Positions 18,809 through 48,231 are shown, counted from the whole stretch's first letter. The stretch is 53,640 nt of DNA, filler included, from Jimgerdemannia flammicorona (GCA_003990765.1; 2 parts of 2 records of this genome joined end to end with filler, not necessarily neighbours in it), one strand, 5' to 3'. Notes: generated by a model from the sequence alone, not told the origin. Numbers and translations: made by a program.

Positions 18809-18915
18809 TGCGGCAGCAGGGGCGATGTTCCTGATTCCTGTCGAAGAAACGCAAGTCCAATTCCCCCGTTCCCGTGCATTAGTAGAATTTCTGTCTGACC
18901 GTTTTGGGGTGCATC

Positions 18916-19719: not shown

Positions 19720-20829
19720 CTACTTTCTAGGTGTAACACCAACATGCCAGAACCTCCTGTGTTGATTCGACTTGCTCGGCTCTTCCGTGTGCACGCACGA
19801 CACCCTCTTATGCTTCTCGACGCTCCTAACTACGCCCTCGACACCTTTCCCTTCTGCGGAGCACCCAACCATAACCAACGAATCGCACGCCCTCAGCAGC
19901 ATCCACAGTCCCTCAACCTTAACCTCGCTCGCAAAGATAGCTCTGATCCGTGGGCACTGCTTAGCAATCAACTTAGCGAGCGCGGCATCCAGAATGTCGT
20001 ACGGGTTCAAGTACAGCACGACAAGCTCGGCGCCGTAGTTTGGCAAGATCACGTTCTGCAGCGCGAGTGGATGATGCGCATACCCCGTAACGTGTGTCAC
20101 GACGGTGTTATCGGGCGTGCGCTTCCTTCCGCCCCGAACAAAGGGCAGGAAGTTCAGTTGTTCGTCTGTGTCGTTTGGGAATGTGAGCAGCGACCCGCAG
20201 CAAGGAAGAGGGCAATCAACATATTTCCCCTCGCGGAAGCAGTCCATGCGAGGGAGAGAAGCCGGTCGTGGGTACTTTGTTCCCGCCCTACCCAAGGCGG
20301 CTTGCTGTGCGGCGTCGGTCTGGGTGAGGAGGAAAGTGGCATCCCTTGTGTTGTCAAGGAGGATCTTGACCTGAGTTTCTGAGAGGTCTGTCATTGTCTG
20401 CAGGAAAGCGACGTTCGGGCAGAGACGGAGCAGATCGAGAAAGAAGCGGTTCGACCAGTGGAAGAGCGGGGAGGAGGTGTGTGGGAGCTTGATGGTTTTA
20501 AGGGAGCGGCCGTATTTCGCGCAGAAGGCTAGGACGTCTTCTGGGGTTATAGCGTGGTCCGGGAATATGACCTTTGTATAGCAGCGCTGGGAGACAATAC
20601 GGTAGCAAGTGCGGTTGACGAGGAGAAGAGATTGCAGGTCTTCGAGAGCTGTGACATGGCTGATGATGTCGACCAGGAGCTCGGTCGGGATGAAGTAGTG
20701 GGAAGTCGACATTGCGGGCGCGGAATCTGGATAGACGGTAGAGGGGCGACGCTTCTGCATCACATAGTGGGTCTTGGGAACACTTGTCAGTGTGCCCATC
20801 ATGGAGGCGCCGCTGAGATCCAGGATCAT
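19720..20829 (-). CDS. F-box protein with degenerate LRR-like repeats, 369 aa
   Basis: IPTELLVDIISHVTALEDLQSLLLVNRTCYRIV is an F-box pattern. LLRLCPNV, IAKQCPRIR and LLRACDSL resemble cysteine-containing LRRs. The ORF is intact and CpG-rich. Confidence 0.8.
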   Translation of the reverse strand: MILDLSGASMMGTLTSVPKTHYVMQKRRPSTVYPDSAPAMSTSHYFIPTELLVDIISHVTALEDLQSLLLVNRTCYRIVSQRCYTKVIFPDHAITPEDVLAFCAKYGRSLKTIKLPHTSSPLFHWSNRFFLDLLRLCPNVAFLQTMTDLSETQVKILLDNTRDATFLLTQTDAAQQAALGRAGTKYPRPASLPRMDCFREGKYVDCPLPCCGSLLTFPNDTDEQLNFLPFVRGGRKRTPDNTVVTHVTGYAHHPLALQNVILPNYGAELVVLYLNPYDILDAALAKLIAKQCPRIRAIFASEVKVEGLWMLLRACDSLVMVGCSAEGKGVEGVVRSVEKHKRVSCVHTEEPSKSNQHRRFWHVGVTPRK

Positions 20830-21880
20830 GATGGTAGATTAAAAGGAAAGTGTGAGGTGGGCGGGAAGGAAGGGGAGAAGGGGGGAGGTGAGGGTAGGAA
20901 AAGGAGTGGATGGGCAGAAGGGAAGGTGAAGGATAAGGGGAAAGAGAATAAACTTTCTATCTAGTATATACTGCGAGCCATCTCCCACTGTCGAAAGGAA
21001 ATGTTTACGCAAAAGGCTAATTGCTAAATGTACGTGACTGTTTTTCTTAAACACTCCACCACTAAGCTCCCTTCTGGCTCGTGTATTGCACGCAGCTTCC
21101 AGAAGGCGGAGCGGAGAGAAAGACCGGCGCTGGGAAACGAAACGAACCCCATTCTATGGATCTATGGGCATAGATCGCCCAAATGGCAATCGCCCAATCG
21201 TCCAACCGGCGAATTTCAGTGCTCTGAGATCTGCACCTTCTTTCTCCCTGCTATCCTATATATCCTCAGAACCGCACATTTCCTACAAATAATTAGTATG
21301 CAATAGTCCCGTGTCCTTATCCGCTTGCGTATTTAAAGTGTCACACTGAATCTTTCATTGGCACGAAAGATTGATGATTAGTCAGTTATGACATCACAGC
21401 TCCCACACGATGGTCCGTGGCTAGGCTCACCGACCGAATTCGGAGATCGCAACAGTCAGAGCCAGCGACGATGAAGAACAGGGCCGTCGAGAGGAGGGAA
21501 CATGGCGAAAACCTCGTGTCGCATGCGAGGATGTGGGGGAGTGGATCCATTTTAGCGGTGAGACTATGTGCGGATAGCGACTAAGAGCCAAGACTTGGTC
21601 CCGTAAGTTTTGTCTGGTATCGCACTTTGAGATACTCTATGAATTAGTGACCTTTTGCTTTGTTTTCCACACATGCCATCATCGAATGCAGAGTGCCATC
21701 CATCACGTCGGAGACTGGCTCGCGACCAACGCACCAACGCCACATTTCCCGAGGGCGCTCAAGCACTGTGTCCTCTTTCTATTATTGTTTATTATTATCG
21801 ACTGGAGCCAAGCCCATTAATGGCCAATACGCATGTAATTTTACCTTGTAGTTATTGATGGAGTTCCTTCTTTCTCTTTG

Positions 21881-21881
<1 letters not shown>

Positions 21882-21976
<95 letters not shown>
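21882..21976. repeat. Poly(T) homopolymer, about 95 nt
   Basis: Seen directly. Confidence 0.95.
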
Positions 21977-21977
<1 letters not shown>

Positions 21978-23779
21978 GCACAGTTTTTTTTGATGACACA
22001 CAATGTTCCTTTGTGTTTTTGGCATCTCTTAGTTTGTTTTATGTTAAGAAATCTCTCACATCCTGCAATAACATGTATTTCGTAATCAATGTTAACATGT
22101 CATACAGCAAATCACATACTCTTTGTTATTAGATAGTTTTTTAATAATGTATCAGTTATATATTAATAAATTTCAGCTCTTCAATGTACTAGGAATCACT
22201 CGGAGATCAGCCCCTACAAAAATATTGGCTCATAAAAAACTCAATGCATCGAACCACATCTCAGGAGCTCACGATTCGCGAAATCCGATTCAAAAAAGAG
22301 GAGAATATTCCACAGAGAAAGTTGTAATCTTACACGCGCTTTTTGTCTTAACGCAAACACTCTGCTGAAGATGGCTTCTGCCTTGGGAGGGTGTGAGTAG
22401 CGAACGAGCTAGTGGTGAGCAGCAAAGTGGCAATGGCTGTAAGCGATAAGCGGCGAGCGGCGAGCGACGGCAAACAATGCGCTCGGAGGAAATTCCTCTG
22501 GGCTTACGCTTGGAACTATACATGTATGTCATGTACATAATGTAGATAGACAAACGGATTGAGAGCTAACACACTGGCAAGACCCGCGAATACGATTGTG
22601 AGATTGGGAATTACAAACTTTCACATCGGACTGTAGAAGGGAGGAACAAGGACTGCATAGAAGGAAGAGCATTGAGCGGAACGGTATTTTGTATTTTCGC
22701 CTCGTGATGAGGAACCCCAAAATTCGTCGAATGGCTTTGGTGTGTGTTTTGGGGTCTTGTGGATAGATCGCCGATCCACAGGTTGGTGTATGTGCAATTA
22801 ACGCAAAACCAGATCAAGAGAGAACAATACATGCGCTTCCTGAAACGCGTCCCTGGAGAAATCAAGTTCTGAGAGCATACGGTATTACGATTGCTCTAGG
22901 CTGTACGTCTAACGCGTAACGTCCCTACCCGAATCCCAAGTCTGAACCGGTTCCACCGTTTTCAATGGATGTGCCATAACGTAGATCGACAATCCGCACC
23001 CGTGCAGTCCCTTGGGTTGAAACCTTGTAGATGATATGTTTACGAGCTTGATAATAGATGACGATGTGAGAATTAAGTGGCACAGATGGGATTGTAACCC
23101 TTTATTCACTGTCAAAAGAAAATAAAAAAGATTTGAAGCGCAATATGGTGCGCACAAACAACGCCGTCCCGCTTTTTCGAGGGACGACACGGCGAAGTTT
23201 CCCACTATTTAACGGCTTTGTCATTCCAAAGCAGAAGAGTTGATTTCCTGGCGATGGTTGGTTGCCGAGGCTGTAGATTCTACAAAATTTGCCATATCGC
23301 CAGCGCCGTCCATATTTTATCTCTGATCTCGGCGAATTGTTAATAAATTTGCCATACAATGACATTGAGCTTATATAACGGGCAGCAGCTTGCAAGGCTT
23401 CGGTGTACAAAGTTCGACAAATAATGCAAGGTTCGAGTTTTCAGGCGCTACCTGTACTGTTTGTCTTGTGAGGCTACGCGTGGCAAGGTTGGGGCTTGTC
23501 AGGTGCGTGTAAATGCGTGAGAACGTTTCGCAGATTGTGAATGTAGGTTTCGTCAAGATTATCGACGTACTGCCAATTATTAAGGGGTTGGATCAATAGG
23601 GTGTGAAAAATAAGTAAAAACAAAACAAACGCCCATCGGCTACCGATCGTTCTACCTGGGACAACCCGTGGCCACATAATTAGGTCTGATCATCCTATGA
23701 CATTTGTGTGGACAAAGTTTGCAGAGTGGGAGGAGATTATCACATATCATACTTTCGTGTATATGGCTGATACAGTTGG

Positions 23780-23810
<31 letters not shown>

Positions 23811-25702
23811 ATTGTCTATGATACCTGGACATCCCGGTTCTCCCCCGTATAGCGCATGTAGTTGTTGCGTTGTGTACTGCTACTATTATATAACGAAGCC
23901 ATTTTCGGCTTGAGTTCAACCTGAAGCTATGAATAGGGAGTCCCAAGTCAGTATTGGCATACTGCTCTTAGCAATGCGTGGGAATAAAATGCCATTTTAA
24001 TAGGTAAATTTAAGCACCAATCACTCCAATCGTTTTAATATCGTGTTTTCATGCCACGAGATCACGGCGCTCTTAAGTCTGTCAGGGGTTCACTTCCCTC
24101 AGGTGTTCTGTGTCGCTGCAAATTCTTTTGGATAAATGTTTGTTGCCACGTGAAGAGCGCCATAATTTCGCGGGAATGTAAAGCGGAAGACATGGTATCA
24201 TGGGAATCATTCCTCATTTCCCGGTCTCAGGTGCCAAAACGTTTGTGGAACTCACATTGGCGTAAGGTCGTATTCATACAGTTTAAGAGCAATTTCTCTC
24301 CATTTTTAGCCGAAGCCGTCAATGGCACATCGGCACATCCGTGAACTATTCGCACAAATAGAAATTGGGCCAAAGATCATTTGACTTCAATTTCAATCCC
24401 GTTTCTCGCAGGCTTGCTGGAACGATGCCGATGGAAACACTCCATCCTCGATCAATGTGCTTGTGTTGCAACATCACACGGACCTGTGAGAGGTTTAACG
24501 GAAATGTGGCCTTTGTGCTCCGCTTCAAAGCTCGCGGTCTTCGCATAAAGAGGCCCGAACGGTCGGATCTACGCCACTCCACATCGGTATCGGGTTGGCT
24601 GCGCTAAGAAGAACGTCGTTGCGCCGTTGGTCATGCGTAGGCTGGCTGTTGTCGTCATGGCGCTGACGCGCCTCATGACTGGGTGGATGGGTATCGGTAT
24701 ATTGGCTGATCCGGTGAACGGAATGTGGATAATCTGTTTGATGCAATAGTAAGAGGACATTGTACCAGAGAGTGTTTTGGCTGTGCGAAGCTTATGGAAC
24801 CGAGTGAAGGTCTGAAAGCAGTAGACATAACCGGACCATCGGCTGCGATTTTTTCATGGTTCCGCGCAAGGTTGCGCTATCGATTGATAAGATGGATCAG
24901 ATTAAGGTTGATAAACAAATTGTATATTTTTCTATCTATGCTTCGAATTACAGTATTACGCATATCTTCCATGAAGACCGGGGAAATCGTTCCTATTCTG
25001 TAGCCCATCTCATGTTACGGAACACTCGTGACAGAATCGTGAGCTCTTTTTATATATAGACAAATCAAAAAATAATTCGCCAAGCAAAGCACAAAATAGC
25101 CTGCTGACCTGAGTGGTGACCACGATTTGGGCTAAGGCGCCAACGAGCACCTCGGCCGTACACGGTACGACGGACACTGGACTATGTAGGCCCACCTTCT
25201 GGTGGTTGCCGGAACACCGGGAGCGCCCGTTCGGTGCGCCAAAGCGGGGTTGCGCGCACGTTCCCCTCCCACGCCCCGTCTTGTCCCAAAACGGCGGTCG
25301 AGGTGGGACAGCAGTCGAATTAGGTGCGACATCGCACGAGGCTGGGTAGGATCTGGTAGTCGCGCTCGGTCCAGGGTTTTGTTTTAGTTTTATGTTTGGG
25401 CGATCGGAAAGAGTGAGACTGTGAGGTAGATCATGCGAATTCGGAATAAATAGGTGGGCTGGTGCGCAGCATTTTTCCTTGCTTTGCGAATCCCCCTTGT
25501 CCATCATTATTTAGAACCCTTAACTATCCCTTCCTCTCATTTATGATCTTGCACTGACCTTTTACATAATTACTGTAACGACAAACTTCCCTAAGCTCAG
25601 TAACGTTTCTTGAGCTTTCCCTTTCCCCCTTCGCTTCACTCCCAACCTCAACACTACACACACCCCCACTTCACCTTCACCTTCCCCCTTCACGCCAATT
25701 TC

Positions 25703-26476
25703 ATGACCTCCTACATTACCAACATCACCAACATCGCCAAAACCGTCATCTGGATCAACATCCGCATATTACTACAATCCATCAACCTTGCCATACATAT
25801 AGCATCCACTCCTCTCCGCCTCACCCTCCATCTCTTCCCCACCGTCACAAACCCCCTCAACCACACCCTCGATGCGCTCCTGATCCACTCCGCCCGTCTC
25901 ACCCTTCTTCCTTACCACGTCTTCGCGGGCCTCTTCTCTGTCTTCCAGCTGGTCTTCCTACAACCGGCCCTCTCCTCTTTCGCGCCGCCTAAACCCACTA
26001 GTCATGAAAATGTCCGCACCTCTCCCCCAACCAAACGCGTCATCCTCACCCCACAACTAAGCGCTTTCCGCTGCCAGCGTCCCAAATCCGACGCCCCGGC
26101 CTCCCCCACAACCTCCCCGCGTTACCCGCGCCGGCCAATCCTCCGTATCGACACCCAAGCTGCCGAGGCCGCACTGGGCATGCACGGCACGCGCCGCAAC
26201 CGTCCCGCCCCCGTCCGCGTCGAACCTACTCCGGCGCCCGTCCCGCGCCACGACGAGGGTTACAACTCGGCCGGGTCGTCCAACAACTCGGGCGAAGAGA
26301 TCGAGTTCCCCGCATACGACCACGAAGCTGCCGTGCTTGTCGCCAAGAAGAAGCGCGCCCCAAGGAACAAGAGACTCCATCCATCCAAGAAGCTGTTCGC
26401 GGGTAGGCTGCCTGTCGGAATGAGCGCCGAGCAGAAAGAGAAGCTGATCGCTAAGTCCGTCGTTGCTGCGTGCTAG
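25703..26476 (+). CDS. Hypothetical protein (257 aa), hydrophobic N-terminal half and Pro/Arg-rich disordered tail
   Basis: ATG at 25703 within the 288-codon ORF, C/G-ending codon bias like the neighbouring genes, and a pyrimidine-rich leader. Confidence 0.72.
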   Translation: MTSYITNITNIAKTVIWINIRILLQSINLAIHIASTPLRLTLHLFPTVTNPLNHTLDALLIHSARLTLLPYHVFAGLFSVFQLVFLQPALSSFAPPKPTSHENVRTSPPTKRVILTPQLSAFRCQRPKSDAPASPTTSPRYPRRPILRIDTQAAEAALGMHGTRRNRPAPVRVEPTPAPVPRHDEGYNSAGSSNNSGEEIEFPAYDHEAAVLVAKKKRAPRNKRLHPSKKLFAGRLPVGMSAEQKEKLIAKSVVAAC

Positions 26477-26770
26477 GCCGAGCAGGTGTGACGTGGTGTG
26501 ATGTGGAAGGCGCTACGGGTTTTTGTACAATACCGTCAATCCGCTCCATATACATAAATACATGTACCCTCGCATCTGTTCGTGACACACATACATTCAC
26601 ACATTATCATAGTCCGTCCTCTACTGCCCTCGCTCGTAGATAAGCGTGAGTAGAAAATATATATTTAAAATATATATTTTAAAACCATCGTGAAGGCAGC
26701 TGTGAGCTTGTTCTTTTATTTATGCGTGTTTATTTGTCGCAAGATAAAATAACAGTTTCTCGGGAAAAAA

Positions 26771-26870
26771 NNNNNNNNNNNNNNNNNNNNNNNNNNNNNN
26801 NNNNNNNNNNNNNNTTAATTAATTAANNNNNNNNNNNNNNNNNNNNNNNNNNNNNNNNNNNNNNNNNNNN
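26771..26870. other. Artificial contig linker N44-TTAATTAATTAA-N44
   Basis: A 12-mer with stops in all six frames, centred in a 100-nt gap. Sequences on either side need not be adjacent. Confidence 0.95.
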
Positions 26871-28084
26871 TTTTTTGTTTTATAGACTCAGAATCCCTAT
26901 GGATTTTTATTGGAAGGGAACCTAGACTATATAGGCCAAAACCCTCCCCCACCACCCATCAAGCACTGCCCCCTCATTAATCTAGGCTAGCTATTATTTA
27001 GCAGCTTGACCATGGCAGATACAGCAGGGCCTATAGTGGCCTGCACCTCATTCTGTATATCATACTCTTCCTACCACCAAGAGGAACTCAGCCATATACT
27101 AATAACTGAAAGCACATACCTGAAACTCCAACATATATACAAGGCCACATCTAAGCTGAATAGAATAGCCCCTGCCATTCTAAGAAGAATGACAGACAAA
27201 AAAAAAACTCCTATCAAAGTATATCATAGTAGATAGAGTCTGGTTCTCTCAAATGAGATGAGTAAAGAACTTATATATAAGGTAGGAGGAGACCCCCAAT
27301 ACCCCACTACTCAAGTCTGCAGACCTCAATTATGTTGCCATATCAGCTTCTGGTTCCAGTTGAGTGTAGCCAAGATGCCTAAAATAGGTAGCCTCAGGCC
27401 TCCTGACCCCCCTCAACAACTGGGGCCCAATCTCACATATCACCAAAAGAAGCTGAGAGTGACACTTACTATCTAACCACTCTATACTAATCAAAAGGCC
27501 CCACCAAAGCAGCACTTGTCCAAGCCCCAATAACTGCCCCCAGTCTGGTACTTTACTGGTTCATTATTATTACTCTTTCTTCTATCTATAACAGCCATCT
27601 CCTCTCTTATCCTAACAACATCTGAAAAACAATTATCTACACCAGAACTGCACTTATCAGGAAGCTCACCAAAGCCAGAGGACTCCACCACAGGTACTGA
27701 GGACCTGTAAATAACCTATACTGGGCACTTGATGCCTAAGGTTGACTGACTTCCTATATAATCTATGATATATCAAGACAATACCTTGTTAACAATGGCA
27801 AAAGAAAGAAGGTACTACACCAAAATGAGTATACTTTAAATATAGCTGAAGATACCAGAAACTATGAAAAAGTAGAGAAAATACTGATCTGATATCAATA
27901 AAAGAGCAACTCATTACTATTGTCCTCCTCTCACTATATTCTTGCAGGTATAGCAAATCAATCTAAGATAGAGAGAATAATAATAGGGGAAAGAGACTTA
28001 GAAGGTTGTCTACCAAATCTTGTGATCAGTAAGATATGTAGTAGAGAAAAGAGCTGAACCTGAATACTCTCAAGTCAAATTTCT

Positions 28085-32951: not shown

Positions 32952-34467
32952 TGTAATAGTGACCTCAGAATGATAACATTAGCATAGGAGACAGTCTTTC
33001 CTTATAAGTCACCAGATCAGAGTACAAGAAGATCATATGGCATATAAGATGAGCAATGATGACCAACTGTGAGTCATTGTGACCACAGTATAAGCATTCT
33101 GAAGAATATAAAAAAAGAATTAAGGAACTGCAGTAGCAGCAACCAACAAGAACTACCAATCTCAAAATAGCTCAAAGACTTACTATAAATAAAATGTCTG
33201 CTGTCTGCCAAACCTCAAGGTCAAGGAATCACCAAGGCATCTCAGTTGAGGAAAGGATATTCCAAGACATCAGAAGAGCCATGAGAACCTGCTCAAGAAG
33301 GACTCCTAGTGTCAACCTGGGTATTGCAGATCTCTACCACTTTATCCTCTACTACTGTAAAATAGAAACAAGGATCACTATTGCTACTGAATGCCTCCAA
33401 ATATGGCAGAAGTACAAAATAAGAAACCTTCTCTGTTGAGAGTTCCTACAGACCAGCCCTCAAGAGCTACAAGATGCCACTTTCATAGATATATGCAAGA
33501 CAAGAATAGCTAAGAAGATCCATCAGATCTTCAGGCATGCACCATGGTCAATCCCCAACTTGGAGTATGTTAGAGTCTCAGATTTCAGAGACCTATCATC
33601 CTACTGTATCAATGTACTAAAAACCAGAGTGGCTACAGAAGCTCAGTCCACTATCACCCTCAATAGTGATGAAGTAGAAGACTTCTAGCACTCCATCCTC
33701 CAAGACAATCCAGACCAATTCCTACAAGGATTGATCTCAGTATTCCAAGGCCCAAGTATCCAGATTAGATCTCCCCAAGATCCCATATTTGTCACCTATT
33801 TTGTGGAAGAGAACCTTATAGACTAGAGAGCCCCAGACCTCCTTCCCACTACTGAATATGATGACATCATCAGTGATGACATCATCCCACATAATATTAA
33901 AGTATATGAAAATGACGAGTTCACAGATCTCATCTCCTTCAGTGATAATGAGGATAAAGCCCCCATGATCCTGAACTTTCTGCTCTAAGTTCTTATTATA
34001 CTGAATAATGCCAGTACTAGTATTTTGATGTAATACTGGATAATACCAGCACTGATATTCTGAGGTGATGTGAAATTATTCCAGTACTGGTATTCTGATG
34101 TGACACTGAATTATACTAGCATCCTGAACCTGTACAACTATCAGTGCCAACCCTGGAACTTAGTAGTTTTAGTTATTAGAATTTATATTTAGCTTTATAT
34201 CTTAGTAACTATTGAATTATATTTTATATAAATATCCCTCTTATTTCCTCTGAAATAAAGTCAGTTCCTCTCAGTACAATATGTATACTTCCTTATAAGT
34301 AATCTAAGAGATAACAAGCCAGTTTAAAGATAAGAAGTTTGAGGACTATAAGACCTTGGGAAGATATTTCAATAAGAACTTGCTTATAACAAACTTGAGT
34401 TAGTCTAAGAGATATACCTTGAAGAGAATCTGGTATATTTGAAGAACTCAGTGACTACTATGTGACA
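32952..34467 (+). repeat. 5' LTR, family B
   Basis: Colinear with 40112-41627. Internal tandem repeats of about 35 bp (about 33998-34125), TATAAATA at 34227 and AATAAA at 34254. Confidence 0.95.
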
Positions 34468-34496
34468 ACTTAGTGCCCATTAGCTGGTGATTCAAG

Positions 34497-37400
34497 ATGA
34501 ATATCTCACTTTCAAGCTGAAAAACAAACAACCTCTACAATAACTACCCTGACTACAAGAGTCACCCCTGTAAGAATTCAAGACAAGATGGAAATATACC
34601 CCTCAACATTCTATGGATATACTACTGAAGAGTCAATCCTGACCTTCATTGAAGACTTTGAACAATTTGCTGCTGTATAAGCCTTTGGTATGGATGCTCA
34701 ATTGGCCCTTCTACCAGTCAGCCTCAGAGGACCTGCTAGAGATAAGTTCAATATAGCCACCATTGCTGATACTAGTGCAGCCAAACTTGCCAACATAAAG
34801 GTCTTCCTCAGAACAACATATTATACTGAAGAGATCAAGCAAGCTCTCAAGGATCAACTCAATACTATCTGCCAGGGACTTAGTGAAGATCCCAACTCAT
34901 TCTATACCCAAATATGCCACTAGATTGTCTTGGCTGGCTATGATGACTGCCTCAAGGAACAAATAGCAGATTCAACTTTCCTCAAAGGAATTCACCCTGA
35001 AATTGCCCTAGCAATCTGGTCTACCCTAGCTGCACTAACCCTTGATCAGAAAGTGGTCTTTGCATAGAGATATTGGACTGCCAGACACCCTATCGAACAC
35101 TCAATGGAGAAAATAACTGGCATCAAGATAGAGCCATCAAAGCTAACTAGTATCATACCTGCTACAGTGGTAAACAGATAAACAACTCCACCTACCCCCA
35201 AGATAGCCAAAGCTAACTCAGTGGAAGAACTCACCAAGTAGTTTGCTGAGATGACTGTACACCTTGGTGATGTTGTTAGAGAAGTCTAAAGTGCCAATAG
35301 GAGACCAGTACAGAGATTTGCAGCTGCTATAGAAGAATGCAATATCATATACTTTAGGTATAGAGAAGAAGGCCACTACACAAAGAGTTGCATGACTGAA
35401 ACAAGATGCAAAGCCCAACCAAGCAATGCTAGCAGAACCAGAGAACAAACCAATGCAGTAGTTATCAAGGAGATTGGTGACACTGATGATGAAGAATATT
35501 ACGAGAAGCTTGAATTCTACCCTACTACTGAAGGTACCAGAACCCAGTCCAAGCCCTATGACAAGAAGAGCAACAGCAAGCCAGTTGGAAGATCAAAGAA
35601 AACCCCAGCTATCACTATTCAAAGCAAGATCCAACCCAAAGAGATTGATCAAGACATAGAGTTAGATGAAGCCGCCTACCAAATCATTGAAGGTACTACT
35701 CCAGTCTCAAGAGAAAGTGAAAGCAAGAAGGAACAAAAGCTGTGCAAGACCAAGATTCACCAGTATGATATCTACAAAGATCTTAAGGAATAGAAGGTCA
35801 ATGCCACTTTTGGACAGCTAGCTGAAGTTCCTACCTTCAGACAGCAGTTGAGAGTAGAACTTGCAACTACTGTCAAGAATCAAGAGAACAAGATTGTAGA
35901 AGCTCACAATGTACAGAAAGAATCCAAGAACTCAGATAAAGAATCTGAAGATCAGTGCAAGACATCAGCCTATACTCTATGTCAGATTGAAGACTGTATC
36001 TTTGATACTATTATTGATACTGGTGCTGAAGGATGCCTCATAAGCAAGAAGGCAATTGACTACCTAGGTTGGGACATTGAAGAGTCTACCAAGATGGTCT
36101 ATATTATAGCAGATAGTATATGAGCTACCCCCTTTTGCAAAATCTGAGAAGTCTCCATCAAGATAGAAGGAGCTACCATTTCAGTAGATGTGATTGTCAC
36201 AAGCACCACCAACTATAACATCCTCATTGGCAATCAATGGCTTCACAAGGCCAAGGCTATTATTGACCTCAATGCCCAGAAGATGTAAATCAACTATAGA
36301 GAGAGAAAGGTATGAGTCTCTATTAATGTTCATAAAAGAGTTCTACCAGATATAGAGGAAGGAGATGAAGAGGACACAGAGGTCTTCATACACTCAGTAA
36401 ATAAGAACAAGAATAAGACACCTAAGCTCACAGATGAGCAGTGGTACAACAAGATCATTGATGGGTATGTCTCTCAAGAAAGATGCCCCCATGGTACTAG
36501 AATGTACTGCTCAGAATACCTGAATGACTGCTGGTCCTGTATCAGTGAAGTCAGGAAAATCCACCAATAGAAATATGAGCAAGAAGCCACCAAAGCAAAA
36601 AGGAAAGCCAAAGAAGATGACCAGCCCCCAGAGTTTCAGGCTGACAGCAATGATGAGGAGGACAAGAATCAGACATCACCCTCAAGGTTAAGAAGTTTCA
36701 CCCTAAAGCCAAGATTCCAGAATATAAGACTGAAGGAGCCATAGAAATAGACCTTGCCAGCATTCAAGATGTTACTGTCAAACCACAGACCACCACCCTA
36801 CTTGGTACTGGAATTGGAGTTAAGCTGCCAGAGAACCATGCCAAAATTATCAAGACCAGGAGCAGTCTGGTCAAAAGTGAAATCTCAGTTAAAGGAGGAG
36901 TAATTGACCCTGATTACACTGGCAAGATCTTCCTCATAGTCAGAAATCACAACCCCACCACCTCCTTTGAAGTCAAGAAGCATGACAGGATTGGCCAGAT
37001 GCTGATCCACAAAATCAAGAAGTCCAAGATCATAGAAGCCATCAAACTCATCAAGACCAAGAGAGGAGAACAAGACTTTGGATCTACTAGAAGAGGAGCC
37101 TATGCCACCACCAAAATTACTAAACTTGAGCACAAGAAAGACAAGGACCAGAATAAGTACATATATACTATTGGAGAAAACTTTCCACTGGAGGAACAAC
37201 TTTTCAAGATCCTGTACCAGAACAAAGAAGTACTTACTATAGACTTCAGGGATATCCACAATCAAGAACCCAAGTACTACCATGAAGTTGATACTGGTGA
37301 TATCAAGCCCATCTACCAGAAAGCCAGACCCATACCACTTGCCTACAGAGAGTGGCTACAAGCAGAACTCAAGGAAATAGAAGAAGCCGGGATCATCAAG

Positions 37401-39798
37401 CAAGCTATCAGCCCCTGGGCTTCACCCATTGTCCTTGCCCCAAAGAAAGGAAGTAAGTCTGGAGAGTTTGTGCCAAGACTCTGCATTGACTACAGGAAGC
37501 TCAATGCTATCACCAAGAAGGATAGGCAGCCCTTGCCAAATATTCAAGAAATCCTTACCACCCTTAGAAGTGAAGCCAAATACTACACTACCCTGGATCT
37601 GTTCTCAGGCTTCTATCAGATTGGTCTCACTCAAGATGCCAGTGAGAAATCAGCCTTCATCATACCTGATGCCACCTATATCTACCTGTGAATGCCATTT
37701 GGAATGTGCAATGCCCCAGCAAGTTCTTAGTGAATGATGAATAGAGTCTTCAGCAATACAGTACAGAAATATGTCAATCACATACAGCTAGCCCTCAAGA
37801 AGCTCAAGGAGCATGGCCTCTACATCAAGCCCAAGAAATGCAAGTTTGTGGCTCAGGAAATCACCTATCTAGGACACCTCATCAACCAGACCAGAATCCA
37901 TACAGACTCTATGAAGATTGAGGCTGTTGTAGTCTACCTGAGACCCAGAACAACTACAGAAGTCCATGCCTTCCTTGGACTGGCCAGCTACTACAGAAGA
38001 TTCATCAAAGGATATTCCAACATTGCAGCACCTATCTATAAGCTACTGAAGAAGGAGACCAAATTCAAATAGACCAAGAAGTACCAAGAAACCTTCAATG
38101 AACTCAAGACCAGATTGATCCAAGCACCCATCCTCAGAAGACCAGATTGGAATCTAGAATTCATCCTGCAGACAGATACAAGTACTATAGGACTTGGAAC
38201 AGTCCTAGCTCAGAAGAAAGATAGATATAAATATGTCATCTCCTATATAAGCCAAAGTACCCATGGAGCAGAACAGAACTATAAGTCATGTAAGCTCGAA
38301 TGCTTAGCAGTAGTTTGGGCAGTAGATAAGTTCCACTACTACCTAGCTGGGAAATACTTCACTATTCAAACAGACTATTCTGCTCTTGCCTGGCTATTCC
38401 ACACTCTGAACCCCAAAGGAATATATGCCAGATGGATCTACAGGCTGCAAGAGTATAACTGTACTATCAAGCACTGCTTAGGAAGAACCAACACCAATGC
38501 CGATGCACTCTCAAGGATACTCCAAAACACTCTTATCAAGACTATTCAATATGAATAAGGAGCTATACTATGGATTAATCAGCTACCTTGGGTAGTGGAA
38601 GATGCACAATCACCTCGAACTCTGGACAATCACTATCATCAACCAGACTTGGAAACAGTTTGAATTAGACAACACTATACTTAGAAAAGGAGGAAAGCTA
38701 GTAATACTCAAATATAAGAAGTATCAAGTAATGAAGAAAGTACACAAGCAAGGACACCTAGGAGGAACCAACATATATAACAAAGCTAAAAGAACTATAT
38801 GGTGGCCCAAGATGGAAGAAGACCTGTGCCAATTTGTCAAAGGATGTGACAAGTACCAAAAACAGAAACAAGATCAGTAAGACCAGACACCTGGGTCATC
38901 AAGAATTGAGCCTATTCCCTTCCACCACATCGCAATGGATATCATTGGACTACTACCAGTAACATTATTAGGAAACTGCTATATTATAATTATTGTAGAC
39001 CTCTTCACCAAATAGATAGAGGTAGGAACATTACAAGAAGCCAATGTCCTCTCTATAGCTGACTTCCTGCACTGAGAAATCATCTGCCACTACAAGACAC
39101 CAAAGCAAATCACAACAGACTGTGGTACAGAATTTATCAATAGATTTCATGAGATAATATATCAGAAATATAAGATCTAGTATATCAAGACCACTGTGTA
39201 CCACTCTCAAGGAAATGGACAGACAGAAAGAACCAATAAGACTCTCAAGAACATCTTAGCAAAGATCTCAGAGACATATGAAAATTGGGATAATTATCTT
39301 CTAACTACCCTCTCTGTCCTATAAGACATATGGTCACAGAGCATACACTTTACCCCAAGGGAGCTGCTCTTCAGAGAAGAAGATTCTGATTGAATCTCAG
39401 CCACAAATCTAGACCTAACTTGGAGATGGGTTGATGCAGAAATCCAGAAACTATACCAAATCAGGAAGAAGGCTGAAGATTACATCACCAAGTCATAAGC
39501 GCTGACAAGGAAGAATGCATAAAAGAATTATAAGGCCCTAGAACTCATCTGAATTGGAGAAAAGATTCTACTGTATTAAAATATAGTAGAAGCCTCATGG
39601 TCATGAAAACTGGAGCCCAAATGGAAAGGACTCTTCTACATCTAAGATATCAAGAAAACCACCTTCTGACTTAGAAAAATCTCAGAGACCATACTGCCTA
39701 CTATGGTACATAGGAACAGACTCAAGAGATACTACAAACCTATACAAGAGAAGCAAAATGTGATGACTGCCTATGAGGTTCTAGTCCATAAATCATAA
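34497..39798 (+). pseudogene. Gag-Zn knuckle-protease-CPH motif-dUTPase-RT-RNaseH-integrase(GPY/F) polyprotein, disrupted
   Basis: LRGPARDKF (gag), EEGHYTKSC (knuckle), IIDTGAEGCLIS (protease), GGVIDPDYTG and RGEQDFGST (dUTPase), SPWASPIV, LCIDYRKLN and TLDLFSGFYQI (RT), LQTDTS, KLECLAVVWA and NADALSR (RNase H), GHLG, AMDIIG, ITTDCG and GQTERTN (integrase). No chromodomain seen. Confidence 0.93.
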
Positions 39799-40111
39799 CA
39801 GCATGTCCTATGACCAGTAGGCTATCTGTCTGGACCATTCTCTAAGGGATATGGTACTGGCAACTACTCATCTGCGAGACTTTTAAAGTCAGAAGAGTTT
39901 GAACCATCAACTGATTGGTCAAGATCAGAATCAGGCCCTTGCTCTATATGAAGAGAGTAATCCTTCACCATTATACCAAAATACAATGAGAAGATGCCAG
40001 TCCATAAATACCACTTTTTGATCCCTTGCTAGAGGTTATGGGATCAGCAAATTTTTCAGGACTGGACTAATGAATAAGGATGCTTGAGAAGATCCTTATT
40101 CAGGAGGAAGA

Positions 40112-41627
40112 TGTAATGGTGAACCCAGAATGATGACATCAGCACAGGAGACAGTCTTTCCTTACAAGCCACCAGATTGGAGTACAAGAAGATCATATGG
40201 TATATGAGATGAGCAATGATGACCAACTGTGAGTCATTATGACCACAGTACAAGCATCCTAAAGAATATAAAAGAAGGATCAAGGAACTGCAGTAGCAGC
40301 AACCAACAAGAACCACCAATTCCAAAATAGCTCAAAGACTTACTATAAATGAAATATCTGCTGCCTGCCAAATCTCAAGGTCAAGGAATCACCAAGGCAT
40401 CTCAGTTAAGGAAAGGATGTTCCAAGACATCAGAAGAGCCATGAGAACCTGCTCAAGAAGGACTCCTAGTATTAACCTGGATACTGCAGATCCCTACTAC
40501 TTTATTCTCTACTGCTATAAAATGGAAATAAGGATCACCATTGCTACCAAATGTCTCCAAATGTAGCAGGAGTACAAAATAAGAAACCTCCTCTGCTGGG
40601 AGTTCCTACAGGCCAGCCCTCAAGAGCTACAAGATGCCACTCCCATAGATATATGTGAGACAAGAATAGCTAAGAAGATCCATCAGATCTTCAGATATAT
40701 ACCATGGTTGACCCCTAACTTAGAGTATGTTAGAGTCTCAGATTTCAGAGACCTATCATCTCACTGTATCAATGTACTAGAAGCTAGGGTGGCTACAGAA
40801 GCCCAGTCCACTATCACTCTCAATAGTGATAAAGTAGAAGACTTCTGGCACCCCATCCTCCAAGACAACCCAGACCAATTCCTACAAGGATTGATCTCAG
40901 TATTCCAAGGCTCAAGCATTTGGATTAGATCTCCCCAAGACCCCACATTTGTCCCCTATTTTGTAGAAGAGAACCTCATAGACTGGGGAGCCCCAGACCT
41001 CCTTCCTACTGCCAAATGTGATGACATCATTGGTGATGATGTCATCCCGCATAATATCGAAGTATACAAAAATGATGAGTTTGCAGATCTCATCTCCTTT
41101 AGTGATAATGAGGATGAAGCCCCCATAATCCTAAACTTTCTGCTCTAAGTTCTTGTTATACTGAATAATGCCAGCACCAGTATTTTGATGTAACACCAGA
41201 TAATGCCAGCACTGGTATTCTGAGGTGACGTGAAATTGTTCCAGCACTGGTATTCTAATGTGATACTGAATTATACCAATATTCTGAACCTGTACAACCA
41301 TCAGTGCTGACCCTGAAACTTAGTAGTTTTAGTTATTGGAATTTATATTTAGCTTTATATCTTAGCAACCATTGAATTATATTTTATATAAATACCTCTC
41401 TTATTTTCTCTGAAATAAAGTCAGTTTCTCTTAGTGCAATATACACACTTCCTTATAAGCAATCTAAGAGATAACAAGACAGTTTAAAGATAAGAAGTTT
41501 GAGGACTATAAGACCTTAGGAAGACACTCCAATAAGAACTTGCTTATAACAAACTTGAGTTAGTCTAAGAGATATATCTTAAAGAGAATCTGGCATATTT
41601 GAAGGACTCAACGACCACTATGTGACA
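40112..41627 (+). repeat. 3' LTR, family B
   Basis: Follows the PPT, has TGTAA...TGACA ends and matches the 5' LTR. Confidence 0.95.
40354..41148 (+). pseudogene. LTR-embedded ORF of unknown function (also at 33194-33988 + and 48712-49524 -)
   Basis: The same reading frame is kept in three LTR copies, with a few stops at different positions and only in-frame indels. Confidence 0.7.
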
Positions 41628-41631
41628 CTAT

Positions 41632-42447
41632 ATACTATAATAAAACTATATATTAATAGAATTAAATATTATGTATAATTAAGATAACTATCAGCTCTAA
41701 GTTCTGAGTTCTTATGAAAAAGTACTAGATTTTAATTATCTATTGCAATAGTATAGTACAAATATCACTTTTGGATTTTTATACTAGTAGAGATATCATA
41801 CTTGTATCACAAGTTAATCAGATTCAGAATTGTTAATAAGTCAGATCTGAGGGTTCTTTGATAAAAATTCTGCTTTATTCTTATATTTAGAGAAAACAGA
41901 GCTGAGATTATAATATACTCAATATAGAGGATATTTATACAGATTCAAAGCTATAATTAAATATAGTATATTAGATATATTTATATATAGTTATATTATA
42001 TATAGTATTTATAACTACTCATTGTAAATTCTAGTAGCTTGCTGATATATAATGAACTATTATATCTTTCTCTTCTTTATTAGAACCTACTCATTAAGAT
42101 CAATACTAAATTCTAGATACTTATTAAACTAGAGAACTATATACTAAACTACTTGAAAGATAATATATATCACTCTAGTATTCATTAGTCAGATTGATAA
42201 TATTCTCAGAAGATACTTTATAAAGATAATTAAGGACTTAGAGTCAAGTATAAAAAATAACATATCTCTTAGTTTATTGATATCTATAGGTAAATTTATA
42301 TACTATGTGATTTATATGATAGAATCAATCTCATTAGATAGAATTTGATGATATAATCATTATAAAATGATAAAACAAAATAACCTACTGTCAGTGCTAC
42401 TTGCTATCTGCTATATTTCACATACTGCTCAGTATATTTCTTACTAC
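41632..42447. repeat. Very AT/TpA-rich decayed repeat, probably the continuation of the sequence interrupted by family B copy 1
   Basis: Linked to 32951 by the CTAT TSD and similar in composition to 32500-32950. Confidence 0.5.
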
Positions 42448-42648
42448 TATAATGGTAACCCCAGAATGATGACATCAGTACAGGAGACAGCCTTTCCTTA
42501 CAAGCTACCAGATCAGAGCACAAGAAGATCATACAGTATATGAGATAAGCAATGATGACCAACTGTGAGTTATTGTGACCATAGTTCAGATATCTTGAGA
42601 AATATAAAAGAAGGATCAAGGAACTGCAGTAGTAACAACCAATAAGAC
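42448..42648 (+). repeat. First 200 bp of another family B LTR, interrupted by family A copy 2
   Basis: Aligns to 40112-40312 and stops exactly where the family A LTR end begins. Confidence 0.9.
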
Positions 42649-45600
42649 TGTAAGAGGGTTTACTTTTTAGAGTAACTGTTACATAGTTCTGAAAGAGTTT
42701 TCTGAAAGTTCTGGATATTCTGAAAGACCATTTTCTTAAGGTCAAGATCAATTTCATATAGAGTATGTCCTCTATACTTATTGATTTTAAGATCAAGTTG
42801 ATGTCTCAATCAAAGTTCTTTTTTGGACTAGTTCTGAATGTTCAGGATTTTCCATATTTTAGGAAGTTTAAGAAACTAAGACCAGCTTAGTTGAATTGGC
42901 ATATTGTTGCAGACAATACCCAATTAGGAAATTTCATAACAGAGATAGGAGTGGAACCTAACAGGGAGCAGATTTACTTAAGAGTGGTTTGTGGGTTATT
43001 AAATAGGTTTATTCACTATTCATAATATTGCTATACTAGGAGTAATTGTATGAAGGAATATTGTGGAGAAGTGCTCAGGAGTTGTGTTTGGATTGTTTAA
43101 GTCTTTAAGTCTGAGATTCTGAGATCTAGGAGAGGGGATATTTATACTAGTGAGGGACTATCTGAACTATGCTAAATGTGGATATAGCACTTAGTGCCTT
43201 GCTGAGTCAAAATACAGTTATGTAGTACAAATGTGATCTGATATATCAAGAGAGCATCTAACTGCTGAGTCAGTTTACAGTCACATTGTATAAGACTAAT
43301 CTAACTATACTTATAATTGCTAAGCTATTTATAGATTTAGATACTGTCTGGTTAGTCTTTGATGACATCACTATTGATGACATCATTGCTGACAAAGTCT
43401 GAGCAGTTTTCTGACTTCTGATATCATCAGTTTCAAAGGTGTTGTTACTTTTATCTCTTGCAAGATTAAGACTGTTCTTGATAGTAGTAGTTATACAAGG
43501 ATAACAGGTCTTGGTTCTCTTTTTTTTTTGGTCTGCTGGCATATTTGTAAGGACTGGCTATCCTTGTCTAGGGTGAGGGCTCTCAATATCATGGCTGGGG
43601 GTTCAAATCTCTTAGAAATGATATTTTCTATAATCCAAGACAATTTCTAGTAGTAATATCTGTCACATGGATGGCTTGAGATTGGGTTTGATAATATTGG
43701 CTTCTTGAGTTCAGATGAAGCATCTGTTACTCTCCAATAGAGGTGACACAGATAGAGTGAATGAAGTTGTTCAAATATGTTGTGCTTCTGCTAAGTAATG
43801 AGGTCTTATATAGTCATAGTATATCTTAGTCTTGAGTTCGATAAGTGCAATTCATGAACTCTTGATAGATGAGATAGGGTCCTTCTTGTCTTGGTTTGAG
43901 TTTGGTACTTTTGGTTTCTTTTTGTAATAATACAGTATACCAAATAGTTATAAAGGTTCAGAGTCAGTCTTATGGTTATAGTACTTCTTCTGATATTCTT
44001 GTATCTTGGTGGTAGGTTCTTGTATTTGCTGGTGTATTTTGTATAATCAGATGATCTCTTCAGTAACTTGTTTTGTAGTCTCACATGTGGTTTCCAAATT
44101 AGTTCTGAGGATGATATGTGATTTTAGTGGCTTGGAGATTATGTGCTTACAACTCTCCTCTTCTTAGTTTTTGACATCCTCATCAGAGTCTTCTAATTTG
44201 TTCTAGTATTGTTGTACCATTTGGATGGTTCTTGTGGCTATGTTTGTTAAGGATTTGTTTAACTTTATATTCTTCTTGGTCATTAATAATGACAGGTGCA
44301 GGTGATTCTATAGTTCAGTTCAGAAATATATCTTGGACTTTCTGGAGTAGGGGTCTAATGTGGCTATCAACTTTGGAAAAGTCTTCTTTAGAGTTTTCAG
44401 ATTCTCCTTTAGATGGACAGATGGAGATGGCAAAGAGAGGATATTTCTTGGCCAATTTCCTGAGCTGTAGCTTATTGATGTGAGTGATCTTTGGTCCAGG
44501 GTCACTAGAGTTGAGTGAGTCTTTTTTGCATTGCAGTTTGAAGTTGTGGTGTCCTTTCTTGATGGTCAGAGAATGGTTTATCCAATCGATCATGGGGTTC
44601 TCTTGTTTCAACCATAGGGTTCTAAGAATGATCTCATTGTCAGGAAGTGGTACAATTTGGAGGGTAATATATACTTGATAGTCACCAATTTGAAAGGGTA
44701 GATTGCAGACTTCCTTGCTAATGATATATGAGGTTCTATCAGCTGTGGCAACTACTTGAGTTTGTTGTACTGGAGAGGTGAAAACCTTGAGTCTGTTGGT
44801 TGTTTCTTCATTGATAAAGTTGCCTGAGGTACTACTGGCTATCATAATCTTAACAGGTGCTCAGTTGACAAAAGCTTGGAGTGTAAGCAGTTTGTCTGAT
44901 CCAATGGTAGTGATTTCAGTTATAGGAGCTTTCTTTCTGTTAGTTCTTCTTTGAGCCAATTCATTGACACAAGAGAAATAGTCATCAATTATTCAGGAAG
45001 AGTATATTCCAATGCCATGAGGGCATTGGCCACTAGGTATATATCTATTTTCGATTTTCTTATGGAATTGTTCTTCTTTGTTCATAATAGGTTGGGCTGG
45101 AGCCTTATTTGATGAGCTAAATCCTTTAGATCCTTGGATGGTAGATAGTAGTTCAGGGACTTCCTTAACTATCAGAGTTGACTCGATTTTCTCAAATAGG
45201 ATCTGGGTAATACAGAAACCAATAGGGATCTTGAAGAGTATCCAACTATGGTTTCAGATAAGGACAATAATTTCACCTGTATAATCTTCATCAATGACTC
45301 CCCCTTCTACTAAGAGTCCTTTCAATGCTAGGCTGCTGCGACAGCATATTATTCCAATATGTCCTTCAAGGATTTGGATGCTGATTCCTGTGTAGATTTG
45401 CTTGACTTCTCAGTTGGAAACTGTAGCTTCTTTGGCTATATACAGGTCATATCTAGCTGCCTTTTGACTTCCTTTGGTTGGGGCCTTAGCAGTTTGTCTT
45501 AACTTGACAAAATCCAGTATTCTGGTAGTTAGGTTATTGAGGTGGTATAGAGTAGTAACAGTTGCTCATATTGCTGTTCAGGGTTTTTGGTTGGAGCAGG

Positions 45601-48231
45601 CACTGGCCATATGTCCTGTCTTTCAGCAATAGAAATATGCTTCACTTCTTCAAAGTTCATTTCTTTCTCCTTCAGTGAGTTTCTTGAAAGCACTTAGCTG
45701 GGTGGGTTCATGATTTCTGGGTGTCTATGAGGTGGATGTTGAGGGAGCTTGGGATGCTTCATGCTTAGGTTCTTCTTTCTTAGTCTAAGTCTTTTCCTTA
45801 TTGTTGAATTGTCTTTAGAGCAGGATTGGTCCAGCTGTTAGAATTCGCTTGACCATGGTCTTGATTCTTGCTAGACATCATTGTTGGTGGTCACAACCAA
45901 CTGGGTGGCCTTGTTCTCAGATTTTTCTGGTAAGCCATTCAGATAGTGTATTGAATAGATAGTCTGCTCTTATACCATTTTGTGCTTTATCATTAGCAAT
46001 GTATCCTAGGCCAACAGTGTTTAAAAGTGACTCAAGTTTTGTACAGAAGGTTTTGAATTCTTCCTTGCCATGTATATTGAATTTGAGGTTATGGAGTTTT
46101 ACTTGAGATCTGGCAATTATGGTTTTGCTGTAGTATTGAGCAATTATGAGTTGTTTTAGTCCAGGGGCTGCAGGATGGGCTCCATATCCTGGGGCATTAT
46201 TTGCTATATTTTGAGCAACTACTGCAGGTTGGGTATCCTATATGAGGGGTTTTTCAGGAAGGGTTCACTACCATTCTTTGGCAGATCCTTAGAAGAATGT
46301 AACAACTCAGTGGATATAGGCTGTAGTGGTAGCAAAGAGTTGTTCCAGAGTATGGTCTTGATTGTTTATCAGAAGGTGGTCAGCAACTCACTCATTGGTC
46401 CATTGATTGGCCTCAAAGTTGATATCAACTATACTAATAAAGCTTTGGACTTCTTGTACAGTACTATTGAAGATAGGTAGGCTCAGATTTTTGGTAGGTC
46501 AGATCTATTCTACTAAGGCAGTAATGGTTGCTGCCATTATGGCTATCTGAGCTGTGAGGTCTAGAATCTATTAGTTTGCTATGTTGTTTACTGGAGACAG
46601 TTGGACTGCTGGTAGTAGTGTTACTGGTACTACTTGAGGTACTGGTGCAGAATATGAGGGTGTTCTTTGGGTCTGTGTAAGTTGCTAAAGTAATAGTTGT
46701 GGGTCTGGAGTAAGGGCTTGATAGATAGCTATTTGTTGCTATATCAGTGTATTCTGTCCTGATGGAGGTATATCTCCTTCAGTAGTATATCTAGGATCAA
46801 ATTCTCTAAGATACTCCTCTTTCTCTTTGGTTTGGTCCCCATGTAATTAGATTTGCTTAGTGTCAAAGTAGACAGAATTAGTTGTATATCTGATTTTGAA
46901 TAGACTTAATTCAAAGTCAAGTTCTGGTTTGGAATTGGTTTCTGGTTCAGATAGGATTGTAGCTGGGCCTACTTCTGGTTCAGAATCAGATTGTTGATGA
47001 AGAGTTTCTCTTGCTTCTTCTTTAAGAATATAGTGGGTCTTGTTATTCTGGAATCAGTAATATAATGTGGTCTTGGTCCTGATATGGTGAAAGTCAGTAG
47101 AGTTGAGCCACTTGGCTATAGAGGCTTGGGCTTCATGAGAAACTAAGGCTAAAAAGACTACTGATAGTTGTCCTAGATTGCTCAGATTTGTGGAGCTGAC
47201 AAAACTCTTATTGAGGAGAGTAAAGAAGGCTTCTATAAGACCTTCTTTGTCTTGACTTGCTGGGTGTAGAGCAAGGAGTTCAGTAAATAGAGTTTTGCCT
47301 ATTTGCTGATTTAATCAGAGTACTTCTTTCTTTGAGTGAAGTTTGTCCCACTTATTGTAGGTATGGAGGTCAAGTTGTCCTTGTATGTCAGATTCAATTC
47401 TCTCCAGATTGTCAGATAGTTCAGGATAAATTCCAGTTCAGAGGTTGGGCTTTATACCAACTTGTAGGAATTCTCAGAAAGGTTTGTAGCAGGGTGAGGA
47501 AGTATCTTGAAGTGAAATTGGATTGTAAATCACTGCTACCAAGTTGTAAGAGGGTTTACTTTTTAGAGTAACCATTATATAGTTCTGGAAGGGTTTTCTG
47601 GAAGTTCTGGATATTCTGGAAGACTGTTTTCTTAAGGTCAAGATCAATTTCATATAGAGTACATCCTCTATGCTTATTGATTTCAAGATTGGGTTGATGT
47701 CTCAACCAAAGTCTTTTTTCGGACTAGTTCTGGATGTTCAGGATTTTTTGTATTTCAGAAAGTTCAAGAAACTAAGACCAGCTTAGTTGAATTGGTGTAT
47801 TGCTGCAGACAATACCCAATTAGGAAATTTCATGATGGGGTTAGGAGTGGGACCTAATGGGGAGTGGATTTACTTAAGAGTAGTTTATGGGTTATTAAAT
47901 AGGTTTATTAGTTATTTATGATATTGCTATACTAGAAGTAGTTATATAAAGAGATATTGTGGGAAAGTATTCAGGAGTATTCTTATATTCTCAAGTCTGT
48001 TAAGTCTGAGATTCTGAGATCTGGAAGAGGGAGTATTTATACTAGTGAGGAGCTATCTGAGCTATGTTGAATATAGATATAGCACTTAGTGCCTTGCTGA
48101 GTTGGAATGCAGTCATATAGTACAAATGTGATCTGACATGTCAAGAGAGCATCTGACTGCTGAGTCAGTTTACAGTCACATCATACAAGGCTAATCTAAC
48201 TATATTTATGACTGCTAAGCTATTTATAGAT
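42649..48231 (-). mobile_element. Family A copy 2 (3' LTR 42649-44151; internal region 44152-47544; 5' LTR 47545-48231, cut by a family B insertion)
   Basis: Reverse-complement colinear with 1-4633, including the same protease-to-chromodomain junction. Confidence 0.93.
47531..47541 (-). other. Primer-binding site of family A, initiator tRNA-Met-like
   Basis: TGGTAGCAGTG begins 3 nt after the LTR end CTTACA. TGGTAGC is the usual complement of the initiator tRNA-Met 3' end. Confidence 0.7.

Follow-up and report, generated by a model that had tools for sequence, protein, structure and literature searches.

A probable accessory gene contained within the long terminal repeat of a fungal Ty3/gypsy-type retrotransposon and present as three dead copies in Jimgerdemannia flammicorona

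The stretch of Jimgerdemannia flammicorona DNA analysed here (53,640 nucleotides, filler included, from GCA_003990765.1; hereafter the window) carries a Ty3/gypsy retrotransposon with protease, dUTPase, reverse transcriptase (RT), RNase H and integrase, bounded by long terminal repeats (LTRs) of 1516 nt. A reading frame of about 265 codons occupies nt 243-1037 of this LTR, i.e. 52% of its length, and recurs in all three LTR copies of the window, two of which belong to this element (element A) and one to a second element of the same family (family B). The initial annotation had proposed a protein-coding gene at this place, and we found the frame at exactly the coordinates it gave for the three copies (Table 1). 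The data argue strongly that the frame is an accessory protein gene lying wholly inside a Ty3/gypsy-type fungal LTR and formerly under selection, of which the window holds three dead copies.

All three window copies are pseudogenes broken by point mutations. In copy 1 the internal stops are a TGA at codon 82 and TAG triplets at codons 165 and 211. Counting those of copies 2 and 3, all five stops align with TGG (tryptophan) in other copies or in intact relatives, position 82 being occupied by W, R or Q, so that a single G>A or C>T change separates each stop from an amino acid codon. Single changes of these two kinds had been invoked in the initial annotation, and they account for five stops out of five. 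Compared with copies 1 and 2, copy 3 contains three separate in-frame insertions of 6 nt, all located in the acidic tail of the protein (alignment columns 959-964, 1027-1032 and 1071-1076); these frame-keeping insertions had likewise been described and are plain in the copy alignment.

The frame is open beyond what chance or base composition would produce: copies 1, 2 and 3 have 3, 1 and 1 internal stops respectively, while the five alternative frames over this interval have 10-28, and for no copy did any of 2000 base shuffles (mean 14.5 stops) come down to the observed number. An antisense gene in the interval was ruled out because the reverse frames carry 10-28 stops. The counts bear directly on a different account of the locus, in which the frame is non-coding LTR that happens to be open by chance or composition and its database relatives are gene-caller artefacts on other copies of the repeat.

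The relatives themselves make this account harder to sustain. A word-seeded protein search over 5.8 billion clusters retrieved five metagenomic proteins with 62-79% identity to the window frame, among them P0005, an uninterrupted open reading frame (ORF) of 271 aa (67% identity, 100% coverage) that shares both its start and its C-terminus with the window frame. A family profile search over 1.84 billion representatives (E up to 0.001) gave six proteins, none of them named. Two, P0010 (E 3e-52) and P0011 (E 1e-44, profile positions 5-269), are each about 40% identical to P0005, align over the full length with a shared start and end, and open with MPxxR like P0005; P0011 also retains the tail motifs DLIxFS and VLNF. 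Weaker matches were P0012 (2e-10) and P0013 (3e-4). A second word-seeded search, made with an alignment of the distant relatives, returned two proteins, both already known; no relatives were found in the viral-contig and genome-contig collections scanned with the family alignments; and none of 7848 candidates was a fused or longer form (600-2000 aa), which the search tool itself rates as weak evidence. Conservation is blockwise: among close intact relatives, residues 139-215 show 82-88% identity and no gap column, and the tail (residues 216-271), at 47-75% identity, holds every protein-level indel, all of them frame-keeping. The C-terminal motif is reached in frame in seven of the eight sequences of the family alignment. 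At about 40% identity a non-coding U3 (the unique 3' region of the LTR) could be expected neither to align nor to stay open, which argues that the gene is real. The claim of a protein-coding gene within the LTR thus finds its support at the level of the family, in intact relatives and in those of about 40% identity.

Metagenomic DNA provided a second view of the gene. A protein-query scan yielded one partial locus on an undecayed contig, L001, which reads in order: the end of integrase, a stop-filled spacer of about 320 nt, the polypurine tract (PPT), the LTR start at 1738 and the ATG of the ORF at 1988. This ATG comes seven codons after an in-frame stop, which makes the LTR ORF a separate cistron. 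Upstream of the ATG, the LTR of L001 differs from the window copies by a 14-nt and a 4-nt indel; the first 121 nt of the ORF contain none. We also aligned Logan contigs of four soil-metagenome runs (three studies) to window positions 39700-41700. The LTR family is abundant in all four runs, three of 32 records among those listed bridge the junction between internal region and 3' LTR with at least 31 nt on each side, and nearly all contigs have ATG where copy 2 reads ATA. Among the 12 indels listed (24 further ones exist), the 795-nt ORF accounts for one, which is 4 nt long and comes from a single low-depth contig, and the roughly 480 nt of LTR downstream of the ORF account for the other 11. 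Because further indels exist beyond those listed, and because the stretch upstream of the ORF is equally indel-free (see below), this pattern is supportive only.

No fold relative was detected for the protein, an orphan that in active relatives would be soluble, acidic and about 270 aa long. The isoelectric point is 4.5-6.0 in the seven family members tested, and the net charge of P0005 is +8 over the first 45 residues and -14 over the last 60. The highest 19-residue Kyte-Doolittle mean is 0.55-1.05 in the same seven of seven members, below the usual cut-off of 1.6, so that there is no membrane segment. This makes an env-like role unlikely, and the initial suggestion of a factor in the env position is further disfavoured by the lack of any env family in Pfam. 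Pfam was searched with eight members (the three window copies with X at the stops and five database proteins) at E up to 1, and no family rose above threshold; the only sub-threshold matches, ATG5_HBR (E 0.034) and Ssr4_N (E 0.2), were discarded as noise. A sequence profile search of the PDB at E up to 1 gave no match. AlphaFold2, run on a 12-sequence alignment (mean predicted local distance difference test score, pLDDT, 60.6; predicted TM-score 0.56), places a helical core at residues 47-150, with helices at 47-83, 89-95, 100-113, 117-122, 128-132 and 136-149 and block means mostly of 70-93, adds a small hairpin and leaves a disordered tail from residue 216 (pLDDT below 50). A model of P0011 (mean pLDDT 55.5) has the same order of elements, which is not independent evidence because the two alignments overlap. 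The predicted layout is thus a short N-terminus of basic character, a core of alpha helices and an acidic, disordered tail with a conserved hydrophobic motif at its end.

Structure comparisons added no relative. Foldseek against the PDB and BFVD (E up to 0.001) gave no match; VIA-align of the two models against 48,161 chains reached best Z values of 3.8 and 3.9, below the noise that the tool states for helical models; and in the ESM Atlas the first match scored 0.83, within the range of shuffled proteins, with structural TM up to 0.33. Chains of the helix-turn-helix type (VirB, SopB, ParB, KorB, TetR, sigma) recur at Z 2.7-3.8, which is within noise and serves as a lead only. Several short motifs were considered and dropped, since none is kept across distant relatives: a clathrin box, a SUMO-interaction motif, an Atg8-interaction motif and a PIP box in the tail, and a Rev-like combination of arginine-rich start and leucine-rich end.

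A number of observations weigh against the gene. The window copies are all dead, as described, and copy 2 lacks an ATG start codon. The ratio of nonsynonymous to synonymous change (Nei-Gojobori dN/dS) among the three copies is 0.33-0.41, and 97-99% of the differences are transitions; neutral simulations, in which the same changes were redistributed over the same bases, gave 0.50-0.54, and 3-20% of them were as low as observed. The window value is therefore only marginally below neutral expectation, and the window alone argues weakly for selection; for comparison, the two shifted forward frames gave 0.62-0.78. At the DNA level the ORF is no better kept than its surroundings (85.0-89.3% identity among copies vs 88.4-90.5% for the rest of the LTR). 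Beyond the DLISF motif P0008 no longer follows the family, either because of a frameshift or because its contig is chimeric. The relatives total ten (P0004-P0013), with a presumed LTR setting for the distant P0010-P0013, and they are an ascertained sample, protein databases holding open frames only. The 650 nt upstream of the ORF likewise contain none of the metagenomic indels listed. Confidence in the models is moderate (the mean pLDDT values above), and the ESM Atlas model of P0005 is poor (pLDDT 0.35). Finally, the expression and function of the protein are things that we infer.

The marginal dN/dS and the absence of extra DNA conservation are what would be expected of dead copies. Of the selection proposed in the initial annotation, together with dN/dS as the way to check it, the window thus upholds little, and it is the relatives, with their intact frames, their shared ends at about 40% identity and their frame-keeping tail indels, that speak for it. 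A frame open by chance would fit the interrupted window copies, their ordinary conservation relative to the flanking LTR, their marginal dN/dS, and the failure of Pfam, PDB and fold searches; it does not fit the shuffles, the other five frames, the full-length alignment of relatives at E 1e-44 to 3e-52 and about 40% identity, or the blockwise conservation with frame-keeping indels confined to the tail. We consider it highly improbable and close to refuted already.

The decay of the window copies has its own signature. Polarised changes in the LTRs are enriched for C>T before A (46/91) and G>A after T (47/69), and the observed/expected CpG ratio is 0.00-0.05 in the transposon-rich parts (27001-53640) vs about 1.0 in the genic region 15000-27000. 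This decay is repeat-directed, RIP-like (resembling repeat-induced point mutation) or methylation-driven, transition-only and CpG-erasing, and it extends across the rest of the elements. A separate observation concerns the two LTRs of element A, whose ORFs differ at 27, 18 and 40 sites in codon positions 1, 2 and 3 (dN/dS 0.33). Such a third-position excess is unexpected, given that the LTRs of one element should diverge neutrally; it could stem from context-dependent mutation, from gene conversion involving other copies or from the element being recombinant.

Table 1. Positions of the LTR gene copies, of the elements that carry them and of other features in the window
Feature	Position	Strand	Remarks
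Element A 5' LTR	32952-34467	+	1516 nt, starts TGTAAT, ends GTGACA (TG..CA)
Upstream TATAAAA	33107-33113	+	LTR nt 156, 80 nt before the ORF ATG; candidate ORF promoter
LTR ORF copy 1	33194-33988	+	LTR nt 243-1037, ATG start, 264 codons, 3 internal stops; pseudogene
35-nt tandem units, about four	33994-34133	+	5' LTR; coordinates transferred from the 3' LTR by a 7160-nt offset
TATATAAATA (TATATAA, LTR nt 1274) and AATAAA (nt 1303)	34225-34259	+	presumed genomic-RNA promoter and poly(A) signal
Element A internal region, decayed	34468-40111	+	PBS-like sequence (primer-binding site), gag remnants, protease, dUTPase, RT, RNase H, integrase zinc domain, PPT
dUTPase domain	36657-37100		in pol, between protease and RT
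Element A 3' LTR	40112-41627	+	1516 nt, TGTAAT...GTGACA
LTR ORF copy 2	40354-41148	+	ATA replaces ATG, TAG at codon 71; pseudogene
35-nt tandem units, four	41154-41293	+	3' LTR; begin just past the stop of copy 2
Second family-B element 3' LTR	48232-49766	-	1535 nt; internal region from 49767 to window end
LTR ORF copy 3	48712-49524	-	ATG start, TAG at codon 118, 18 nt longer; pseudogene
Second retrotransposon family	42449-48232 and 1-4626		LTRs of about 690 nt at 42649-43337 and 47545-48232
Family-B LTR-start fragment	42449-42648		200 nt
Host gene, Cwh43/PGAP2IP-like	14744-18309	-	intron-split, membrane protein

The element that carries the gene is readily recognised. The two LTRs of element A are about 90% identical to each other, and a 4-bp target duplication, CTAT, lies on both flanks of the element. 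A PBS-like sequence containing TGG follows the 5' LTR, with no tRNA matched to it; in each of the four metagenome runs it also comes after the LTR end. The PPT, AGGAGGAAGA, stands directly before 40112 and adjoins both 3' LTRs of the window as well as the LTR of L001. A protease DTGA motif is found in the frame 35794-36123, and Pfam identifies, in order, dUTPase (1.6e-23), RVT_1, RT_RNaseH (8e-32) and Integrase_H2C2 (3e-14), the rve core of integrase being found in the relative L001. In L001 integrase forms a separate ORF in another frame (173-1420), whose ATG overlaps the stop of RT-RNase H (L001 1-180; ATGAATAA; about 38558-38600 in the window).

Within the LTR, motif positions suggest how the gene may be arranged. 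The ORF ends upstream of two motifs, TATATAA (nt 1274) and AATAAA (nt 1303), which would place it in U3; the initial annotation had put the frame inside the LTR and upstream of its TATA box, a placement borne out by these positions and one that gives every LTR a copy. A conserved second TATA motif lies upstream of the ORF: the TATAAA(A/G) at nt 156 is kept in four of four sequences (TATAAAA in the three window LTRs, TATAAAG in L001). Between the ORF and the nt-1274 TATA box, ending about 90 nt before the latter, lie the 35-nt tandem units, which have a CCAGCACTGG-type palindromic core and are candidate U3 enhancer repeats. They were seen by a repeat search and missed by Tandem Repeats Finder, and their copy number varies among metagenome contigs, in which joints skip 32-88 nt or go back 108 nt.

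The two TATA motifs open another interpretation, i.e. that the gene lies in a very long R (the terminally repeated part of the RNA) and not in U3, genomic RNA starting after the nt-156 TATA and the ORF being its first cistron, before gag. The conservation of that TATA in all four sequences is as expected from this, and so is the LTR of L001, which is ATG-free from there to the ORF after an ATG-dense stretch of 152 nt. Against it, the second TATA has an AATAAA 29 nt further on, which is how U3 and R are usually arranged, and with an R of about 1.1 kb the 5' LTR would contain a functional poly(A) signal at a long distance from the cap. By retroviral logic, a poly(A) signal so placed would truncate the genomic RNA. 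We thus regard the long R as unlikely and retain U3 as the probable location.

With the gene inside the LTR, reverse transcription would duplicate it into both LTRs, and every solo LTR would retain a copy. We propose that each LTR may be a self-contained cassette, composed of the TATA at nt 156, an ATG-free leader (as in L001), the ORF, the four 35-nt repeats, and the TATA plus AATAAA. In L001 the opening 152 nt of the LTR contain 10 ATGs, and the 100 nt that lead from there to the ORF start are free of ATG; ribosomes scanning from upstream of the LTR would be stopped at the ten, and a short mRNA is thus a more likely message for the ORF than the full-length RNA. Such an mRNA would begin, or be spliced in, between LTR nt 152 and 243 and would end at the LTR's own AATAAA, so that every LTR, solo ones included, could be a complete gene.

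What the protein would do for the element is a more tentative matter. We rank first, as a possibility, a trans-acting nuclear regulator of the element's own LTR, because of the basic start, the helical core, the acidic unstructured tail and the repeats with palindromic cores that separate the gene from the genomic promoter; antagonism of host silencing ranks second and is less probable, and other roles make up the remainder. It is tempting to speculate further that LTR genes are free-standing, their product being a sequence-specific regulator with a new fold that binds the 35-nt repeats and switches the neighbouring genomic promoter on or off, a proposal which we consider doubtful as it stands. 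If it were true, solo LTRs would be distributed regulator genes controlling the whole family in trans, and an early-diverging fungus would have in them a retrotransposon counterpart of the transactivators found in complex retroviruses, or of the Mtv sag loci that give protection.

Two further explanations grant that the gene is real. One is that the protein serves the host or the resident copies: made from old and solo LTRs, it would hinder new copies, in a manner akin to the protection that endogenous Mtv sag gives to mice. The layout would permit this, every LTR, solo ones included, retaining a potentially self-sufficient gene, and mouse mammary tumour virus (MMTV) offers the precedent of an LTR-encoded protein described as an antiviral factor (PMC11998498). 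The resident copies in the window are all inactivated, however, and show no sign of host-level selection, so that we judge a defensive role quite unlikely. The other is that a host or foreign gene was captured into the LTR as a useless passenger. An orphan without a recognisable domain might well be one, and LTR retrotransposons are known to acquire diverse extra ORFs (PMC5408684). However, the representatives searched above yielded no free-standing homologue and no longer forms, and for a gene to keep its ends intact across lineages that share only about 40% identity, selection in the element lineage must have continued. A passenger is accordingly very unlikely, and an accessory gene selected within the element lineage remains our preferred explanation.

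Elsewhere in the window, the host gene has normal CpG and encodes a Cwh43/PGAP2IP-like membrane protein, in which Pfam recognises a Frag1 domain, two 6TM domains and, at the C-terminus, a nuclease-like domain (E 1e-14 to 4e-100). The second retrotransposon family has an internal part 87% complementary to 226-3251 and is flanked by the family-B LTR-start fragment and the minus-strand family-B LTR, which indicates a nested or rearranged transposon cluster.

LTRs usually count as control regions without coding function and are masked by annotation pipelines. A gene that is conserved and lies wholly inside one would mean that the elements, and thousands of solo LTRs, are to be reread as potential genes and not only as promoters. 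As an orphan without detectable fold relative, the protein may represent a new type of regulator, or of antagonist of host defence, encoded by an element, and the abundance of the family in soil metagenomes means that intact copies are available for testing. A full-text literature search, which leaves most subscription journals outside it, found no account of a fungal retrotransposon with a protein gene inside its LTR.

Comparison with known systems locates the gene among several partial parallels. Plant Ty3/gypsy elements also carry extra ORFs, and gypsy-like elements of bdelloid rotifers have lineage-specific accessory genes, termed ORF3, with unknown or varied functions; such ORF3s are usually separate transcription units expressed from spliced messages (PMC5408684), which gives precedent to both an own-promoter and a spliced route for the LTR ORF. 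The rotifer and plant ORFs, by contrast, lie between pol and the 3' LTR or are antisense, whereas the ORF described here starts 242 nt inside the LTR and also ends inside it; the terms 'inside the LTR' and 'within LTR' are absent from that article (PMC5408684). The backbone of protease, dUTPase, RT, RNase H and integrase is shared with other dUTPase-bearing fungal Ty3/gypsy elements. Retrotransposons seldom have their dUTPase between protease and RT, an arrangement reported from basidiomycetes (PMC5408684); the descriptions compared, themselves partial, mention no LTR gene, and integrase is a separate ORF here, as seen in L001.

Among retroviruses, nef of human and simian immunodeficiency viruses and tas/bet of foamy viruses are accessory or regulatory genes at the 3' end that reach into U3. 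They start upstream of the LTR and only overlap it, unlike the LTR ORF, and the likeness is one of architecture alone: an acidic C-terminal activator is what we tentatively propose for the LTR protein. A Tas-like architecture would join a DNA-binding domain to an acidic activation region acting on the own LTR; the LTR protein has an acidic disordered tail (-14 in the last 60 residues of P0005), and the helix-turn-helix matches are within noise. To our knowledge, sag of MMTV, placed in U3, is the only well-studied LTR-resident gene. Like the fungal frame, it is a complete accessory ORF (about 300 codons) in an unusually long LTR, upstream of the LTR promoter and present in both LTRs. Its product is described as an antiviral factor, and MMTV, like the fungal element, also carries a dUTPase (PMC11998498). 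The differences are equally clear: (i), there is no sequence homology to Sag (no Pfam family at E up to 1 and no match in the PDB profile search). (ii), Sag is a type II membrane glycoprotein, whereas the fungal protein is acidic, with a maximal 19-residue hydropathy of 1.05 and, (iii), the gene belongs to a Ty3/gypsy retrotransposon of a fungus, which lacks env. MMTV sag is thus the closest analogue of the fungal LTR gene, by position only.

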